From: Escherichia virus TH54
Length of the DNA stretch: 64,000 nt
Sequence record: MT446420.1
Reading direction: 5' to 3' (one strand)
Each line of letters begins with the position of its first letter. Position 1 is the first letter of the stretch. The translations under genes and the position numbers were made by a program. The notes under the pieces were generated by a model. It had not been told where the DNA came from, did no database searches, and saw only the letters and a program-made list of their open reading frames with translations. Shown here piece after piece: positions 1 through 63,093 of this stretch.

Positions 1-29
1 TCACCAGCAGCTTTGATTAATTCTAACAT
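1..29 (-). CDS. hypothetical early protein, N-terminal fragment (gene continues left of window)
   Basis: ATG at 29 on minus strand, preceded by GGAG and the conserved early-promoter leader; only about 9 codons visible. Confidence 0.3.
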
Positions 30-32
30 TTT

Positions 33-100
33 ATTCTCCGTTTGTTTATTTGGTAACTCAGTATGGAATCATTATGCATCATGACCATCTGGTTGTACAC
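33..100 (-). promoter_or_regulatory. early promoter cassette (-35 GTGTAC, -10 CATAAT) with conserved 5' leader
   Basis: minus-strand GTGTAC-N18-CATAAT, then leader GATTCCATACTGAGTTACCAAATAAACA..GGAG..ATG shared with cassettes at 19.5k, 20.0k, 20.9k and 57.5k. Confidence 0.55.
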
Positions 101-146
101 ATATACTAAATAAAAATACTTAATAAAACCATAAAGGAGAAAGTTT

Positions 147-893
147 ATGATTTTATCCGGAAGAACTGTTGATGAACTCAATGAAAAAGTCCAGGCTGCC
201 TTGGCTAATAATTGGTATTTGTTTGGTTCGACTATGGTGTTGCCGAATACCCCTACGGATAGCAAAGAGCGTTTTTTCCAAACTATGTCCAGCTCGGAAA
301 CTCAGATACCGGGTCCACCTGGTCCCAAAGGAGAACCGGGTGTACCAGGACCAAAAGGAGACCCAGGTGGGGATGGAAAATCTTCTTATCAGATATGGCT
401 TGACTTGGGAAATACAGGAACTGTTGATGATTTTTTAACTGATACAGCAGGAAAGAGGGAAAAATCCGAGGTGTTTTGGAGTGGTATAAACGTTCTATTA
501 ACCAATGGTGTGACTTCAAACATAATTAGTGTTTTAAAGGGGATTCCACCGACTGCAGGGACTCTATCTCCGTTTTTTAGAACCACTGATGATAAGTTGT
601 GGCCATATAACCAAGACAGAAGCCTAATGTTTAAACTCAACCTTATTGGTAATTTTGCAGGAGCCTCGCAAGCTCGAAGTATAACATTAAATTTCGTTGG
701 AACCAACGGAAACACTTATATACAGAATCGTCCGGAAAATGCTACAGATATTTTGTCTTTTACAACGTTCTTTAGCATTGATAAAGATGGGGCAATGGCA
801 ACCAATGGTACAGCTATAACTGTTATGCCAAATGGCGGCAACTTTACAATAACCTCTGCATTGTTAGTAGCCGAACAAACAGTGACTTCATAA
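147..893 (+). CDS. collagen-like repeat protein with tail-fibre-like motif, opposite strand to neighbours
   Basis: 248-aa ORF, AGGAG 7 nt before ATG; eight G-X-Y triplets (GPPGPKGEPGVPGPKGDPGGDG) followed by KSSYQIWLDLGNTGTVDDFL; GC hairpin just past stop. Confidence 0.5.
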   Translation: MILSGRTVDELNEKVQAALANNWYLFGSTMVLPNTPTDSKERFFQTMSSSETQIPGPPGPKGEPGVPGPKGDPGGDGKSSYQIWLDLGNTGTVDDFLTDTAGKREKSEVFWSGINVLLTNGVTSNIISVLKGIPPTAGTLSPFFRTTDDKLWPYNQDRSLMFKLNLIGNFAGASQARSITLNFVGTNGNTYIQNRPENATDILSFTTFFSIDKDGAMATNGTAITVMPNGGNFTITSALLVAEQTVTS

Positions 894-895
894 AC

Positions 896-920
896 AAAAA
901 AGGGCCGTATGGCCCTTAGA
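896..920. terminator. intrinsic terminator hairpin GGGCCgtatGGCCC, A-run upstream and T's downstream
   Basis: perfect 5-bp GC stem with 4-nt loop; reads as hairpin plus U-tract on the minus strand. Confidence 0.5.
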
Positions 921-1111
921 TTGCACTCCAAAAATTATGGAATCTTATAGTATTGATAGCCCAGTTAACAAACCTGCGAGTTTGCTTGGGAGTTGGTTTG
1001 CATATGTACTTGATATTGACCCGACGACCAGTTTCACGACAGACTGCTTCGAGATACCAGCGGCGACCTTTATGAGGTCTTCCATACGATAAGAAGACCT
1101 TGATTTCCTGG

Positions 1112-2122
1112 TTATCGATAATAGGAATTGTGGTTGTCAAGATATACCTCCTCAACAAACTTGTCCCAGAACTTCATGTCCACCTTCGCAGGCATACCAT
1201 TCTTAGCAGCCCAGATGGCATTAGTTTCGACTTCATCAACGATAGCTTCAAGTTCAGCCTGTACATCTTTAAAAGCATGTAACCCTTGTTTGATTTCAAG
1301 GATAAACGGTGCTGTTCGTAAAGGATATTGAAGGTCACCGGTCATATAAATTTCCTTCAGCTGATATCCAGCTCGATAAGCATGACTCAATGCTTTCCAG
1401 TCAATACCTTCATTCGCTTCGGCCTTACGAGCACGTTCACCATATTCGGCATCAAGTTTATTCAGAGATTGCTTGAGCTCGATTAAAGACAGAGTAGTTT
1501 GGTATTTACGACCGAGGACAGTATAGAACGTTTGAGGACCTGTTTTCTCATGGTTATGAAATACCCATTCACAGAACTCGTTTTCAGGGAGCCGGTGCTT
1601 AATATCTTCTACCTTAGTACGTCGTTGCTTAGTAGAACCATCTTCTTGATAATCGACCCATTGTTCAGGAATCTGGTTAACGATTTCCAATACACCACGC
1701 AGTGCAGCCAATCGAGAACCTTTAACACCATATTTGGAAGCTTGCTTGCGGACATACCCCAAATAGGCTTTCATGTTGGTTGTATAGAACCGCGAACGGT
1801 TATCCTGAATAAACTTCCATACATCTGGTAAATCGGATTTGACAACCAGGTCAGCCGGCGTGTGAATCATGTCCAGAGCAACGGTTTCGCCTTCGGCCGC
1901 CAGTTTAAAGAAATATTTCAGACTATAAAGTTCATGGTCAACATCATCTTTTGTATTTTTGGTAGCCGTGTTATTCGTGTTCAGGTTGGTATGGTTCATC
2001 GCCGTCCCAAGTAGAATATCACGAGGATGTGGAACAAAGATTTCTTTAAAATCGACATCAGATTCTGGGGTACTTGTTCCATAAAGGTGGCTACCGAAGT
2101 AGCCTTTCATAATAGTTTTCAT
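1112..2122 (-). CDS. nucleotidyltransferase-fold protein (Pol-beta superfamily motif GS-x10-SDVDF)
   Basis: 336 aa from MKTIMKGYFGSHLYGTSTPESDVDF; GAGGA SD; 4-nt overlap with upstream gene. Confidence 0.6.
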   Translation of the reverse strand: MKTIMKGYFGSHLYGTSTPESDVDFKEIFVPHPRDILLGTAMNHTNLNTNNTATKNTKDDVDHELYSLKYFFKLAAEGETVALDMIHTPADLVVKSDLPDVWKFIQDNRSRFYTTNMKAYLGYVRKQASKYGVKGSRLAALRGVLEIVNQIPEQWVDYQEDGSTKQRRTKVEDIKHRLPENEFCEWVFHNHEKTGPQTFYTVLGRKYQTTLSLIELKQSLNKLDAEYGERARKAEANEGIDWKALSHAYRAGYQLKEIYMTGDLQYPLRTAPFILEIKQGLHAFKDVQAELEAIVDEVETNAIWAAKNGMPAKVDMKFWDKFVEEVYLDNHNSYYR

Positions 2123-4278: not shown

Positions 4279-4481
4279 TATTCCACCACATATGATAATG
4301 AGAAAATTGCTGATGAAAGATGAGTAGCATCTTCTTCGCACAGTTCAAATGGAGCTTTCTGTAAGAGTTCAACAACTTCTTCATCAGTGGCACTGTCCAT
4401 AAAGATTGCATAATCATTAAGATAGATAACAACCTCATCACCAGTATTAACTGCATCAATCTTGATATTTTTAATTCTCAT
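4278..4481 (-). CDS. hypothetical small acidic protein
   Basis: 67-aa ORF directly downstream of an early promoter cassette. Confidence 0.45.
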   Translation of the reverse strand: MRIKNIKIDAVNTGDEVVIYLNDYAIFMDSATDEEVVELLQKAPFELCEEDATHLSSAIFSLSYVVE

Positions 4482-4582: not shown

Positions 4583-4965
4583 TACTCTAGTGTTAACAGA
4601 TACTTAGTCTGAAAGAAAACTCCAACGATATCGTCCAGAGTCGATTGAATAGCCTTAGGTACAACTTTATAGACTCTTTCCGAGCTTTTAATCATTTCAT
4701 CTAAAAACAAAATTGTATCTTTCGGCAAGTCCGAGGCGGACGGTAATGCAGCTTTGTATTGTTTCCCGCTGTAACCTAACCATTGCTCACTGAACTGGTC
4801 GAGTGGACCTTGGATTTCTGTGAAGTAGAAATCATAAGCTTTATGGCGGGCGTAACTTTTGGTTTCAAGATGGGCGGACTTAAAATAAGCCAAAGAGACT
4901 AACAACCACCCAATATATGAATCCACCTCAGACCCACGACCCGTTACGAAATCATCAAATTTCAT
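4582..4965 (-). CDS. hypothetical protein (rI.-1 position)
   Basis: 127-aa ORF immediately downstream of rI-like gene; followed by terminator. Confidence 0.45.
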   Translation of the reverse strand: MKFDDFVTGRGSEVDSYIGWLLVSLAYFKSAHLETKSYARHKAYDFYFTEIQGPLDQFSEQWLGYSGKQYKAALPSASDLPKDTILFLDEMIKSSERVYKVVPKAIQSTLDDIVGVFFQTKYLLTLE

Positions 4966-5272
4966 CTTCCAATTTTACCTTCATTAATTTAGCGTATTCG
5001 ACTGCAGCAGCACGGCCATCAATTTGACATGTGATTTCATTTACACATTGGCTCTTATTGTTCCATTCAGTTTTAATAAAAGCCCAAAATTGTTCGGACT
5101 GCTCGACGCTGGGTTCTTTGAATTGCGAATAGATTTGCATCGCACTATCTGCATACTGGGTAAATTTACCATCTGTAGCAGAGGACATATTTGGGCCTAA
5201 ACAGCCCATTAGTAATAGACTTAGAGAAAGTCCTCGAATAAGGTCCATAAAGGACTCCTTATTGTTGGTCAT
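4955..5272 (-). CDS. rI: lysis-inhibition regulator rI-like protein
   Basis: N-terminal hydrophobic signal/anchor; C-terminus ...AAAVEYAKLMKVKLEDEI resembles T4 RI ...AEMAQSYARIMNIKLETE; lies next to tk as in T4. Confidence 0.6.
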   Translation of the reverse strand: MTNNKESFMDLIRGLSLSLLLMGCLGPNMSSATDGKFTQYADSAMQIYSQFKEPSVEQSEQFWAFIKTEWNNKSQCVNEITCQIDGRAAAVEYAKLMKVKLEDEI

Positions 5273-5319
5273 GATTACGCTTTGCAGCCTTAACATAGCG
5301 GAATACTAGTTAGTAACTG

Positions 5320-5327
5320 TATTTATA
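5320..5327 (-). promoter_or_regulatory. late promoter TATAAATA on minus strand upstream of rI
   Basis: exact TATAAATA about 50 nt upstream of the rI ATG. Confidence 0.4.
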
Positions 5328-21515: not shown

Positions 21516-21523
21516 TATTTATA
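21516..21523 (-). promoter_or_regulatory. late promoter TATAAATA on minus strand
   Basis: exact T4 late-promoter octamer upstream of ORF 21101-21484. Confidence 0.4.
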
Positions 21524-57610: not shown

Positions 57611-58891
57611 ATGGCAAAGATTAACAAATTACTGCGCGAGTCAACTATTACTACCAGCAACTCCTTGGGCCGCCCGAATCTTGTTGCTTTGACCCGCGCT
57701 ACGACTAAATTGATTTACCGCGATATCATCGCTGAACAACGTACTAACCAGCCTGTTGCTGCACTGTATGGTGTTAAATATCTTACTCCTGATAACGAAT
57801 TCAGTTTCCAGACGGGCGCTACTTATGGAGGTGAAGTCGGTTCTAAAGACCGTACAACTATTCCAGAGTTAGCTACAGCCACTCAGCCTGTGGCTAAAGG
57901 CGAATATGTAAAATACCAAAATATCGTTTACAAAGCTCTGGTTGATAATCCATTTGCATCGACCACAGAAACAGTGTTATCTGATGTTCTGCAAGAAGGT
58001 CTTATTGCATCGACTATTCGCCTTGTTCCTGATGCAGCACACACCGAGAAATTTGAAACCGGTGATGTTGAAATTAGCAATGCTGTATTCCAGGTTAACA
58101 AATGGAATGCTCCGGTTAAAACACGTAAATTGAAAACTGCATTAACTGTTGAACTTGCCCAGGATATGGAAGCAAATGGTTTTAATGCTCCTGCTTTCTT
58201 AGAAGACCTGCTTGCCACTATTATGGCAGATGAAATTAACAAAGATGTTCTTCAGTCTCTTATTACCGTTTCCAAGCGTTATAAAGTAACTGGCGTTTCT
58301 GACAATGGTTCGGTTGATTTGACATATGATGCAGCCCCGGAAGGCGCACGTAAACTGTATGAACTGGTTTGCGAAATGAACTCCGAAATTCAGAAAACTA
58401 CATCTTATTCCGGTACCTTTGTTGTTGCCTCTAGCCGTGTTGCTGCTATGTTGGCCGGTTCTGGTTGGTTGAAACACAGACCAGAAGATGAGCAATGGCT
58501 CCCCGAAACCGCTTATGGATATTTGATTAATGGTCTCCCTGTATTCTGTGATGTTAACAGCCCATTGGATTATGTAACCGTTGGCGTTAAAGAAAATTAC
58601 GGCGGAAACGAAGTCGTAGGTTCAATCTTCTATGCTCCTTATACCGAAGGCCTGGACTTGGATGATGAAGAGCACGTGGGCGCGTTTAAGGTCATCGTGG
58701 ACCCAGACAGCTTGCAGCCATCTATCTCCCTGATGGTTCGATATGCACTTTCAGCCAACCCTTACACCGTTGCTAAAGACGATAAAGAAGCTCGTATTAT
58801 CGATGCAACCAATATGGATTTAATGGCCGGTCAGAGCAACATGTCTTATCTGCTCGGTGTTAAACTTCCGCCAATCATTTATGAGGCGTAA
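57611..58891 (+). CDS. 24: capsid vertex protein gp24
   Basis: 426 aa; MAKINKLLRESTITTSNSLGRPNLVALTRATTKLIY close to T4 gp24. Confidence 0.9.
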   Translation: MAKINKLLRESTITTSNSLGRPNLVALTRATTKLIYRDIIAEQRTNQPVAALYGVKYLTPDNEFSFQTGATYGGEVGSKDRTTIPELATATQPVAKGEYVKYQNIVYKALVDNPFASTTETVLSDVLQEGLIASTIRLVPDAAHTEKFETGDVEISNAVFQVNKWNAPVKTRKLKTALTVELAQDMEANGFNAPAFLEDLLATIMADEINKDVLQSLITVSKRYKVTGVSDNGSVDLTYDAAPEGARKLYELVCEMNSEIQKTTSYSGTFVVASSRVAAMLAGSGWLKHRPEDEQWLPETAYGYLINGLPVFCDVNSPLDYVTVGVKENYGGNEVVGSIFYAPYTEGLDLDDEEHVGAFKVIVDPDSLQPSISLMVRYALSANPYTVAKDDKEARIIDATNMDLMAGQSNMSYLLGVKLPPIIYEA

Positions 58892-60175
58892 ATGCAAAAG
58901 ATTAATGCACTAATTCACGAATCAACATTAACGGCGGCCAACCAGGTCGCCCGTCCTAATTTGCTTTCTTATACACAGGCTACGAATAAACGAATTTTTA
59001 AAGCACTCGTGGCCGAGCAGAAAACTACCCAGCCTGTTGCAGCGCTGTATGGTGTTCGTGTTCTGAACCCAGATGATAAAATGACTTATCTCGGTGGAGC
59101 AACATTCGCGGGCCAGATTGGTATGTTCGAGCGTAAGAATATCCCAGAATTTACGAACAAAGACGAAGCTTATGCAGTCGGCGATATGTTTCAGTTTGAA
59201 AGTGTTGTATTCAAAGTTCTGGAAGCTTCACCCTTTGCCGGGACACTCGAAACTGATTTAGGTGAAGTTATTTCTGAAGCCATTGCTGCTGGACATATAA
59301 GAATGATGTCAGATGCTGCTTTCACTGATAAATTTGAAAAGGGGCATCCTGAAATTGCTGAAGCTGGGTTCCGTATCGATAAATGGCAGACTGAAGTTAA
59401 ATCCAGAAAGTTGAAAACTTCTTTAACTGTCGAGCTTGCCCAGGACCTGGAAGCAAACGGTTTCGATGCAACAGACTTCATCGATAATATTCTCGGCATT
59501 CAAATGGCAGAGGAAATTAATAAGGATGTATTGCAATCCCTTATTACTGTTAGTTCCCGCTTCAAGGTACAAGGTGTTTCTGAAAAAGGCGTCCTGAATC
59601 TTACTGACCCGAAATATGATAACGCACAGGACCGCGCACGAACCCTGTATTATTATATGTGTGAAATGAATTCTGCAGTTCAACGTCAGACTTCGTTTGC
59701 TGGTACATATGCGGTTGCTTCTTCCCGTTGTGCAGCTATTTTAGCCGCTTCTGGTTGGGTTGAGAAAAAGGAAGACCAAGATGAATTAGCCTATGGTGTT
59801 CTGAAGAATGGTTTGCCTCTTTATGCGGATATGAATAGTCCATGCGATTATGTTATTGTTGGTGTAAATGCGGATATGGGCGAGGGTCAGACGGTCGCAT
59901 CTTTGTATTATGCGCCTTATACGGAAGGGCTTAGCGAAGTTGATGATGAGGGTGATACCTCGGTTGGGGAATTCAAGGTTATTGTTGACCCTGAAAGCTT
60001 ACAGCCTACGGTTGCACTGTTAGCTCGTTATGCTTTGACTGCTAACCCTTACACCGTTGCTAAAGACGATAAAGAAGCCCGCATTATTGATGGAGCTGAT
60101 ATGGATAAGATGGCCAACCAAAGCCAATTGAGTTCTTATCTTGGTGTTAAACTTCCACCACTGGAAAAAGAATAA
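58892..60175 (+). CDS. second gp24-like capsid vertex paralog
   Basis: 427 aa colinear with upstream gp24 (shared SRKLKT..TVELAQD, LQSLITVS, YAPYTEGL, ANPYTVAKDDKEARIID) but more divergent. Confidence 0.85.
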   Translation: MQKINALIHESTLTAANQVARPNLLSYTQATNKRIFKALVAEQKTTQPVAALYGVRVLNPDDKMTYLGGATFAGQIGMFERKNIPEFTNKDEAYAVGDMFQFESVVFKVLEASPFAGTLETDLGEVISEAIAAGHIRMMSDAAFTDKFEKGHPEIAEAGFRIDKWQTEVKSRKLKTSLTVELAQDLEANGFDATDFIDNILGIQMAEEINKDVLQSLITVSSRFKVQGVSEKGVLNLTDPKYDNAQDRARTLYYYMCEMNSAVQRQTSFAGTYAVASSRCAAILAASGWVEKKEDQDELAYGVLKNGLPLYADMNSPCDYVIVGVNADMGEGQTVASLYYAPYTEGLSEVDDEGDTSVGEFKVIVDPESLQPTVALLARYALTANPYTVAKDDKEARIIDGADMDKMANQSQLSSYLGVKLPPLEKE

Positions 60176-61933: not shown

Positions 61934-61960
61934 AAAGGGACCCGAAGGTCCCTTTTTAAT
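61934..61960. terminator. bidirectional terminator GGGACCcgaaGGTCCC
   Basis: perfect 6-bp stem, A-run and T-run flanks; follows hoc stop on minus strand. Confidence 0.65.
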
Positions 61961-63093
61961 TAATAAACGTAATCGTATATAATACCAGCTTCTAAAGCGG
62001 TGCGATGAATAATTCGACCATTACGAGATTCTTGCACATCAACCTCTGGATAGTCGGTAATCATTTTTTGAAGTGTGTATCGGTGCAAATAATATGGGCT
62101 ATTTGGGTCATCGGTTTTCCAGTCTTGTCCAGCAAGAGCCATTTTCTGAATTTCATCCATAACCCACCAACCACACCAGATATAAGCTGAATTACGTACC
62201 GGCAATGGATGAACGTAAGGTAATTCGCCATCTGGAACTGGTGCGACTTTAGCCGTGACTGTTACATTACCGGTTTTTGTGACAGTCGCCGGGTCATAAT
62301 CAGTCGCCGAAACCACAACAGAAACTTCAATAACCTGGGAACCTTCGGTGCTTGTGTCGATTACTAGAGTATCCGTGGTGCCAACTACAGGAGAACCGTC
62401 TTTCTTCCAAGAATATGCAAAAGTAGCACCAGCAGGCGCGCCAACCACATCTGCTTGAAACGAAGCTGGAGTACCTTCCGGAACATTAATTGATTCTGGA
62501 GTTAATGTAACAGAAACACCCGACATAGTTTTCTTAACAAAAGTTACCGCAGCTCCTTTAGATGCGGTACCATTATTATAATCGGGTGCAGAAACAGTAA
62601 CTTCACAGTTCAATGTATAATTTGCTTCAGCCGATTCGGTGATGGTGATTGTTTTACCAGTTTGCCCTGGGATTACATCGGCATTTCGTTTCCATACATA
62701 AGAAGCAGACGCTCCATCTGGTTGCCCGCTGATATTAGCTGTAACAACTTGAGATTGTCCTATTTCTTTAGTAACAGAGGCTGGGTCTAAAGTCAGCGTG
62801 ATTGCCGGCATTGTTTTATTCTGGATAGTTAAAGTCGTCTCAGCTTCAGCAGTTTCCGGTTCGCCTTCCGCTGGTGTAGTTGTTGCAACAACTTTAATAG
62901 TCTTGCTGCCTGCTGGACCAACAGCAACATAATCCATCGCAGCGGTCACAGAAGATTGAGGAACGCCATCAACGGTCCAAACAAATGATTCAGTACCTTC
63001 AGCTGCAGCACCGGAACCGGTCGCAGTGAAATTTGTTGTTGCTCCAATAACGGCCGTAGCCGCCAAAGGAGCAATATCTACGGTATAAGCCAT
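61960..63093 (-). CDS. hoc: highly immunogenic outer capsid protein Hoc
   Basis: 377 aa with three tandem Ig-like repeats and C-terminal ...ELPYVHPLP..SAYIWCGWWVMDEIQKM as in T4 Hoc. Confidence 0.85.
   Translation of the reverse strand: MAYTVDIAPLAATAVIGATTNFTATGSGAAAEGTESFVWTVDGVPQSSVTAAMDYVAVGPAGSKTIKVVATTTPAEGEPETAEAETTLTIQNKTMPAITLTLDPASVTKEIGQSQVVTANISGQPDGASASYVWKRNADVIPGQTGKTITITESAEANYTLNCEVTVSAPDYNNGTASKGAAVTFVKKTMSGVSVTLTPESINVPEGTPASFQADVVGAPAGATFAYSWKKDGSPVVGTTDTLVIDTSTEGSQVIEVSVVVSATDYDPATVTKTGNVTVTAKVAPVPDGELPYVHPLPVRNSAYIWCGWWVMDEIQKMALAGQDWKTDDPNSPYYLHRYTLQKMITDYPEVDVQESRNGRIIHRTALEAGIIYDYVY

Follow-up and report, generated by a model that had tools for sequence, protein, structure and literature searches.

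A candidate capsid-anchored, C1q-like fiber gene in the early region of the T4-type phage Escherichia virus TH54

A conserved plus-strand gene in the early region

The stretch of Escherichia virus TH54 DNA analyzed here (64,000 nucleotides of record MT446420.1, referred to as the window) carries near its start an open reading frame (ORF) at 147-893 on the plus strand, which begins with ATG and encodes 248 amino acids before the stop codon. Re-reading the sequence gave the same coordinates and length as a preliminary description of the locus made from the letters alone, and the Shine-Dalgarno sequence reported there was present as well (AGGAG at 135-139 on the plus strand, with a 7-nucleotide spacer to the ATG). 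The protein is labeled "tail needle knob" in GenBank and RefSeq. It is most likely a small three-chain fiber, made of an anchor, a short collagen stalk and an Sf6-like knob, and specified by a conserved but optional late gene.

The ratio of non-synonymous to synonymous substitution rates (dN/dS) against seven orthologs was 0.1-0.3 (Nei-Gojobori method, where synonymous sites were unsaturated), so on sequence evidence the ORF is judged to be a real gene rather than a chance reading frame. It was 99.6% identical to ORF111 of Yersinia phage vB_YenM_P8 and was intact in eight independent isolates at identities of 98.8-99.6%. The copy in RZ differed by six synonymous and four non-synonymous changes (dN/dS 0.2). 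Neither a signal peptide nor a hydrophobic segment was visible on inspection of the protein sequence.

Domain architecture of the encoded protein

The two most informative domains of the protein, a knob at its C-terminus and a small module at its N-terminus, had both been missed in the preliminary description. The knob makes up the C-terminal 60% of the protein (amino acids 103-248; 453-890 on the plus strand) and is of the Sf6 type, with a jelly roll like that of tumor necrosis factor (TNF) and C1q. Pfam family PF16532 (Phage_tail_NK) matched amino acids 99-244 with 112.1 bits against a cut-off of 27 (E 2.9e-32), phrog_1030 matched the knob at E 3e-67, and a profile of the family matched the solved knobs of Sf6 and HS1 (PDB 3RWN/4K6B) at E 7e-47. 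An AlphaFold2 model built from 121 sequences had a predicted local distance difference test score (pLDDT) above 90 over residues 103-246, and in Foldseek it was superimposed on the same two structures at E 1e-16, with template modeling (TM) scores of 0.87-0.90 and root-mean-square deviations of 2.3-2.7 Å; over these C-terminal 146 residues the homologous proteins were 38% identical. The next-best folds were C1q, TNF ligands, collagen X NC1, PRD1 P5, Bacillus ExsFA and TNF-like lectins, and the fold search also recovered a structurally similar knob on the central spike of phi812 (9EUL).

Four residues of the Sf6 knob, E146, K200, S248 and D250, contact an L-glutamate that is buried at the subunit interface (Leavitt et al., PMC3741392). 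In the alignment of the family profile to the solved knobs, these correspond to E108, K163, S210 and D212 of the ORF product, of which the first three were invariant and D212 was at least 90% conserved among the 121 sequences. The solved homologues, with which the protein has both the jelly roll and the glutamate-contact residues in common, are trimers, and by analogy the knob would form a trimer as well. Homologues of the Sf6 knob had been listed in RB43, 31, 44RR2.8t and ViI-like phages by Leavitt et al. (2013), with function unknown.

The knob is preceded by a collagen-like tract and a SAY-type motif, both of which are present as the preliminary description had reported them. The tract (amino acids 56-79; 312-383, plus strand) consists of eight in-register G-X-Y triplets, with glycines at 56, 59, 62, 65, 68, 71, 74 and 77, followed by KSSYQIWLDLGNTGTVDDFLTDTAGK; six of the eight triplets have proline in the X or Y position. 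Because the tract is short, its score with the Pfam collagen family PF01391 was below the cut-off (17.9 against 27.2 bits), while longer tracts in two orthologs (P0008 and P0025) carried PF01391. It was disordered in the monomer model and is predicted to span about 7 nm if a triple helix forms. The SAY-type motif (amino acids 77-102, GKSSYQIWLDLGNTGTVDDFLTDTAG; 375-452, plus strand) was modeled as two short helices. Across the family the motif recurs as a unit, one to five times per protein with G-X-Y runs in between; five relatives (P0014-P0016, P0021 and P0025) have two to five tandem copies. The length of the G-X-Y tract varies from about zero in RB43-type orthologs to more than 20 triplets (P0007 and P0008). 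This recurrence in orthologs argues against the case the preliminary description had named as fatal to its claim, that of a chance low-complexity repeat with no conserved relatives. No Pfam family was found for the motif, and the collagen and SAY segment matched two PHROG tail-fiber families (phrog_15437, E 2e-8; phrog_13286, E 7e-6). Likeness to these families was confined to that segment.

Residues 1-50 (147-296, plus strand) form an N-terminal module that Pfam, profile and fold comparisons place as a divergent DUF1737 domain and that is proposed to be the virion (capsid) anchor. AlphaFold2 models predicted the order strand-helix-strand-loop-strand. The module was conserved in all full-length relatives, from T4-type myoviruses to 60-kilobase (kb) Klebsiella siphophages, and the 234-amino acid proteins of the latter (Kpn BU9, Carvaje and VLCpiS10a) were 37-39% identical to the ORF product over it. 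With Pfam PF08410 (DUF1737), for which the cut-off is 24 bits, the copy in the window scored 17.6 bits as an isolated module and 13.8 bits within the full protein. Eleven of the 12 N-modules of the family matched DUF1737 at E <1 (best E 3e-6); one of them scored 21.8 bits (P0020), and a fragment of the same architecture exceeded the cut-off with 26.2 bits (P0127). A profile of the module gave 21 hits among 1.84 billion representative proteins, and those outside the family included single-domain proteins that scored 27-47 bits on DUF1737. In a fold search of BFVD, the nearest neighbors outside the family were annotated DUF1737 proteins, with TM scores of 0.67-0.83. Matches in PDB, in a copy that lacked the phi24B model, were set aside: those by sequence were coiled-coil noise (E >0.5) and those by fold were small alpha/beta proteins (E >0.6).

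A location has been reported for the DUF1737 domain of phi24B. A 2026 cryo-electron microscopy preprint describes a helix and three strands that dock a decoration protein on capsid hexons, where the domain forms a hexamer over the central pore and a loop residue provides the anchor (bioRxiv 10.64898/2026.04.10.717836). The N-terminus of the phi24B protein, gp84 (residues 9-52), aligned with the N-module in hhalign over 44 columns at E 7e-5, and the helix and three strands predicted for the N-module fit the published description. The loop that bears the phi24B anchor residue, the capsid "tooth", corresponds in the alignment to the most variable part of the N-module. Like the ORF product, gp84, a NanS-p esterase with an N-terminal DUF1737 labeled "decorating capsid protein", has its module ahead of a linker and a functional distal part. 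Unlike gp84, the ORF product has a collagen stalk and a knob in place of the esterase, is expected to be a trimer and not a hexamer, has no evident cleavage motif, belongs to a phage with a T4-type capsid carrying Hoc and Soc, and resembles the domain at a level below the Pfam cut-off.

The N-module also occurs ahead of other distal parts. A 520-amino acid relative (P0125) has two tandem N-modules followed by unrelated repeats and a different C-terminal domain, and in a 151-amino acid protein (P0133) the module stands before another repeat region. Because it is fused to other distal parts in these proteins, the N-module appears to behave as a portable module, as would be expected of a portable anchor. 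A BFVD search with a model of the N-module (147-314) also found DUF1737-fold proteins of giant viruses, namely Yasminevirus, Harvfovirus, Terrestrivirus and Edafosvirus, and on these model-based matches the fold does not appear to be confined to tailed phages with HK97-type capsids.

The label in the databases was weighed against this architecture. A tail needle of the P22/Sf6 type (gp26/gp9) was rejected: the protein has no portal-channel plug domain and no coiled-coil shaft, and the needle construct aligned with it over the knob only (profile positions 106-251). In place of the gp26-type plug and coiled coil of Sf6 gp9 and its HS1 counterpart, the ORF product has a DUF1737-like N-terminus and a collagen shaft, so it is not a tail needle; its phage, unlike the host virion of the Sf6 knob, is contractile-tailed, T4-type and needle-less. 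The preliminary description had likened the repeat segment to those of tail-fiber and receptor-binding proteins, and such a role was not established. Pfam gave no hit at E ≤1 in the protein to a tail-fiber repeat or adaptor domain such as PF22337, and the N-module resembles no known tail adaptor. The protein is neither a tail needle nor a canonical tail fiber.

Distribution and genomic setting

The source phage is Gaprivervirus-like and T4-type, about 92% identical to ECML-359, pEC-M719-6WT.2 and Yersinia phage vB_YenM_P8. The ORF has a RB69ORF102c-like gene on one side and the nrdC.11 nucleotidyltransferase gene on the other. Between 1112 and 28243 every ORF of at least 120 amino acids is on the minus strand, except for two that overlap minus-strand ORFs. 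Late genes are on the plus strand, which has 14 exact TATAAATA octamers at 37-64 kb, and the ORF runs in their direction, as is usual for late genes embedded in early regions.

Alignment by blastn of window positions 1-1400 with Shigella phage SP18 showed that only 1-75 (97%) and 891-1400 (92%) were shared. The 815 base pairs (bp) between them (76-890), which contain the promoter region and the ORF, form a variable cassette, and at its site SP18 has 257 bp with a small minus-strand ORF. The gene is an optional cassette, absent from this close relative. The fiber-like, accessory character proposed in the preliminary description was borne out, both by the PHROG matches of the collagen and SAY segment and by this optional status. 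Copies at 60% protein identity or more were found in about 14 Tevenvirinae records of the phage collection, compared to 352 records that matched the flanks.

A lone plus-strand member of the family was found in the nrdC/tk early block, mostly beside nrdC.11, in at least five T4-type lineages. The carriers are Gaprivervirus, Dhakavirus (AnYang and C6), Kanagawavirus (PEi20) and Pseudotevenvirus phages, the last represented by RB43 (RB43ORF128w) and many phages of Citrobacter, Klebsiella and Enterobacter, along with two metagenomic T4-type lineages. The block of Yersinia phage fHe-Yen9-01 has a copy too, separated from nrdC.11 by a few genes and flanked by a T4_y05I_C-like gene and the antiholin gene. 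In the 60-kb Klebsiella siphophages the gene directly follows terminase, and in one of them it overlaps the stop codon of the large terminase gene. The position had been called foreign to the canonical T4 layout; it is indeed non-canonical, yet it recurs in the nrdC/tk block of several T4-type lineages.

The gene is also an intragenic mosaic. When 147-890 was compared with the copy in Escherichia phage C6 (L014:1264-2019), the knob half was nearly identical, with a proportion of synonymous differences (pS) of 0.12, and the half made up of the N-module and stalk was saturated (pS 0.7-0.9; N-module 0.90). This difference suggests a recombination breakpoint near window position 375.

Expression signals

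Late genes of T4-type phages are recognized by an upstream TATAAATA octamer that spans positions -13 to -6 relative to the transcription start. No exact TATAAATA precedes the ORF, as the preliminary description had stated, and the nearest match is TAAAAATA at 111-118 on the plus strand, 36 nucleotides before the ATG, with a single mismatch at octamer position 3. If it is used, the transcript is predicted to start near position 124. Orthologs in C6, AnYang, PEi20, fHe-Yen9-01 and a metagenomic contig (L015) have the exact octamer 30-33 nucleotides before the ATG, those on two further contigs (L012 and L013) have it at -65, and RB43-type orthologs have CATAAATA at -33. Since an exact late promoter is present in orthologs of five other lineages, the family would be classed as late-expressed by the usual promoter criterion. 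Late expression of the copy in the window would be weak or uncertain.

This raises the alternative of a silent or decaying gene in the lineage of the window, one that inherited the cassette and kept an intact ORF, and whose late promoter degenerated from TATAAATA to TAAAAATA so that the ORF is poorly expressed. The window's late genes with a recognizable promoter all use the exact octamer; in seven of them it lies 9-96 nucleotides upstream of the start codon, and none depends on a variant where an exact site is present. The TAAAAATA string occurs 10 times on the plus strand of the window and could easily be a chance match, and the promoter region is the part most different from the Dhakavirus orthologs. 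Decay is nevertheless improbable, given the intact ORF in the eight isolates, the synonymous bias of the few differences from RZ and the strong Shine-Dalgarno sequence that has been kept. The octamer is at the same distance from the ATG as the functional ones, and the late octamer of T4-like phages tolerates some variation, its first position (-13) being variable and Aeh1 using CTAAATA, in a study that does not address position 3 (PMC1524935).

Other sources of a transcript were considered and rejected. For read-through from a late promoter further upstream, the 4 kb upstream of the gene in two close relatives held no plus-strand TATAAATA or [AT]ATAAATA. No sigma-70-type site for the plus strand was found upstream of the ORF. 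The palindromic TGTACA at 94-99, which the preliminary description had linked to the ORF as well as to the divergent early genes, belongs with the latter only: it pairs, across a spacer of 17 nucleotides, with a CATAAT -10 hexamer in a sigma-70-like promoter that reads from 99 to 71 on the minus strand, toward a gene with its ATG at 29. The promoter scan called this site on the minus strand only, and a plus-strand promoter on the palindrome has no usable -10 hexamer at 16-18 nucleotides.

The hairpin that the preliminary description had placed after the stop codon is present at 900-917 (GGGCC GTAT GGCCC), and its reading as the terminator of the ORF was rejected. Its T-run is on the minus strand, with an A-run before it on the plus strand, and the scan called it a minus-strand terminator. 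In SP18, which has no ORF here, the hairpin is kept with a different, still-pairing stem (GGACCCC/GGGGTCC in place of GGGCC/GGCCC, at about 4340-4360 of the SP18 record, L003), and the stem differences appear to be compensatory changes in a backbone element. Because it is retained with such changes in the ORF-less SP18, the hairpin is regarded as a backbone element that is at best bidirectional. All orthologs have hairpins 3' of the stop codon. A small conserved ORF (916-1104, minus strand) lies between the 900-917 hairpin and nrdC.11; it corresponds to a 62-amino acid hypothetical protein of vB_YenM_P8 and is part of the backbone in common with SP18.

A possible capsid-anchored accessory fiber

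The HK97-type head and the connector are all that unites the myoviruses and siphoviruses in which the N-module occurs. Taken with the phi24B finding, this favors, as the best-supported reading of the gene, an accessory, late-expressed fiber of the virion, C1q-like and trimeric and probably anchored to the capsid as a head decoration rather than to the tail, with a probability that we put at roughly 45%. From N- to C-terminus, such a fiber would consist of a DUF1737-type anchor of about 50 residues, a flexible linker, the eight-triplet collagen helix, one SAY-type helical motif and the Sf6-type TNF-like knob. The gene would be transcribed late, from the late strand, as the promoters of the orthologs suggest. 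The knob would trimerize with one L-glutamate buried per subunit interface and nucleate the collagen helix, and three DUF1737 modules would attach the fiber to the outer capsid surface, most likely in the pocket at a capsomer center. The knob would then project about 12-15 nm from the head and could serve, like Hoc, as a non-essential adhesin or dispersal factor.

Fibers of this kind are known from other heads. SPP1 gp12 is a collagen-like trimer at the hexon center, a quasi-sixfold site (PMC7602432), and crAss001 gp21 is a trimer with residues 1-38 docked in a hexon pocket (PMC10172136). Both are non-essential trimeric fibers with a short N-terminal dock at the hexon center. They differ from the ORF product in their anchors, no sequence relationship to it was detected, and a distal knob is lacking in gp12. 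T4 Hoc is likewise an accessory, late-expressed capsid protein that projects outward and is thought to be weakly adhesive, and it differs from the proposed fiber in being a monomer of Ig-like domains. In C1q, collagen X NC1, EDA-A1 and other proteins with a collagen stalk and a TNF-like head, an N-terminal attachment segment is likewise followed by a collagen helix, which is nucleated by a trimeric jelly-roll head at the C-terminus; this likeness is at the level of the fold, analogous or very distant (9-16% identity), and the stalk of the ORF product is much shorter.

Knob proteins have also been found in virions. Three peptides of ORF169 of LIMEstone1, a knob-only homologue in a myovirus of the Ackermannviridae, were identified by virion mass spectrometry (PMC3296691), and peptides of Sajous1 gp119 were recovered too, in a table that also lists non-structural proteins. 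LIMEstone1 ORF169 and its CBA120 counterpart orf226 come from contractile-tailed phages and combine a homologous knob with an annotated late promoter and presence in the virion by mass spectrometry; unlike the ORF product, they are about 172 amino acids long and lack the DUF1737 module, the collagen tract and the SAY motif. A small ORF upstream of the knob-only gene in Ackermannviridae was considered as the other half of a split anchor and rejected, since it had no similarity to the N-module and no Pfam hit. Gene context has been noted as well: the Klebsiella siphophage copy directly follows terminase, and a knob protein of Aeromonas phage 44RR2.8t is encoded between the genes for gp23 and gp24. 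The latter (44RR2.8t.2, L017:3566-4432) has 288 amino acids and carries PF22337 and no DUF1737. SP18 and most related phages do without the cassette, and such dispensability fits a decoration protein and not an essential tail part.

Several observations weigh against a capsid-anchored fiber. The DUF1737 score of the copy in the window is below the Pfam cut-off (17.6 against 24 bits), and the hhalign probability with phi24B gp84 was only 63%. Capsid binding by DUF1737 comes from one preprint on an unrelated podovirus, in which the domain is hexameric and is separated from the remainder of the protein by cleavage (bioRxiv 10.64898/2026.04.10.717836). Giant viruses and thousands of single-domain proteins have the domain as well, and it may be a general oligomerization or binding module. 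Hoc is encoded by the same phage (61960-63093), so that the two proteins would coexist or compete, and since T4 Hoc occupies the hexon center (PMC7602432), the obvious docking site is possibly taken. The virion mass spectrometry concerns knob-only homologues and not full-length members. The lineage of the window has no exact late promoter, and none was found within 4 kb upstream in relatives. Finally, knobs are also carried by tail fibers, as suggested by the PF22337 repeat of the 44RR2.8t protein and by a relative (P0105) whose N-terminus looks by eye like that of a T7-type tail fiber.

The last point leads to the main alternative, an accessory fiber or receptor-binding protein of the tail, baseplate or neck, in which the N-module would sit on the tail or collar and the knob would contact the host at adsorption, as the tip of the Sf6 needle does. 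The only location at which the knob has been characterized is the tail tip of P22-like phages (PMC3741392), and the similar knob of phi812 is on a central spike. Fusions to tail-fiber elements are found among relatives (PF22337 in 44RR2.8t; the T7-fiber-like N-terminus, again by eye, in P0105 and P0115), the collagen and SAY segment matches tail-fiber families in PHROG, and LIMEstone1 ORF169 is a virion protein whose location within the virion was not assigned. Against these stand the resemblance of the N-module to DUF1737 and to no known tail adaptor, its occurrence in myoviruses and siphoviruses with unrelated tails, the dispensability of the gene and its distance from the tail genes, and the complete, conserved set of spikes and fiber sockets that T4-type baseplates already have. 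We regard attachment to the tail or neck as unlikely; if it were true, the gene would be one more accessory adhesin.

Much less probable still is a protein outside the virion, a soluble or cell-associated trimer that binds envelope or glycans and affects superinfection, lysis timing or aggregation. The gene is accessory and patchy in distribution, and it is surrounded by early genes without an assigned function. DUF1737 proteins are mostly small, single-domain and uncharacterized, some of them in prophage lysis regions, and the copy in the window has no exact late promoter. The protein has no visible signal peptide or hydrophobic segment, though, and canonical late promoters in orthologs, knob-only homologues in virions and a layout of anchor, stalk and knob that is typical of surface fibers all argue for a virion protein. 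The preliminary description had offered an accessory adhesin, a decoration protein or a moron. Of these, the decoration protein is the one favored here, and the moron is unlikely given the late promoters in the orthologs.

No literature was found on the function or virion location of the full-length T4-type proteins. The DUF1737-collagen-SAY-knob architecture, its conserved placement as a late gene in T4-type genomes and the hypothesis of a head fiber are new, in that no paper addressing them was found. A wider proposal, which we hold more tentatively than that of a head fiber in this phage, is that DUF1737 is a portable capsid-docking module across the heads of podo-, sipho- and myoviruses, and that some T4-type phages have a third decoration beside Hoc and Soc, a C1q-like, collagen-stalked knob fiber in the capsomer pores. 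For virus assembly, T4-type capsids serve as a reference system, and through Hoc and Soc they are also used to display antigens. An optional trimeric head fiber with a transferable anchor of about 50 residues would bring a new docking principle to these capsids. The best-studied phage family would then have a head appendage that had gone unrecognized, and one that offers a ready-made scaffold for display or adhesion. It would also explain the presence of Sf6-type knobs in needle-less phages, a question raised in 2013, when the entry given was "function unknown", and would generalize capsid binding by DUF1737 beyond the one case of phi24B. Automatic labels such as "tail needle knob" or "tail protein" are misleading for the prediction of host range.

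Other features of the window

Two tandem paralogues of the gp24-type vertex protein are encoded on the plus strand at 57611-58891 and 58892-60175, with 55% mutual identity, and SP18 has only one gp24. The second paralogue is labeled "24b" or "vertex protein II" and does not co-occur with the knob gene. The possibility that the knob gene is tied to this paralogue, as a fiber of special vertices, was rejected, since gp24b is common among JS98- and VR7-like phages without a knob gene.

The Hoc-like head decoration gene at 61960-63093 is on the minus strand and encodes 377 amino acids, compared to 282 amino acids for hoc of SP18. The length of Hoc is polymorphic among close relatives, probably through the number of Ig domains.

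An exact TATAAATA was also found on the minus strand at 5320-5327, just upstream of a 113-amino acid ORF (4955-5296, minus strand) with a hydrophobic N-terminal segment, and could act as a late promoter within the early block. On the same strand, four more TATAAATA octamers are located at 21523, 24541, 25832 and 28279.

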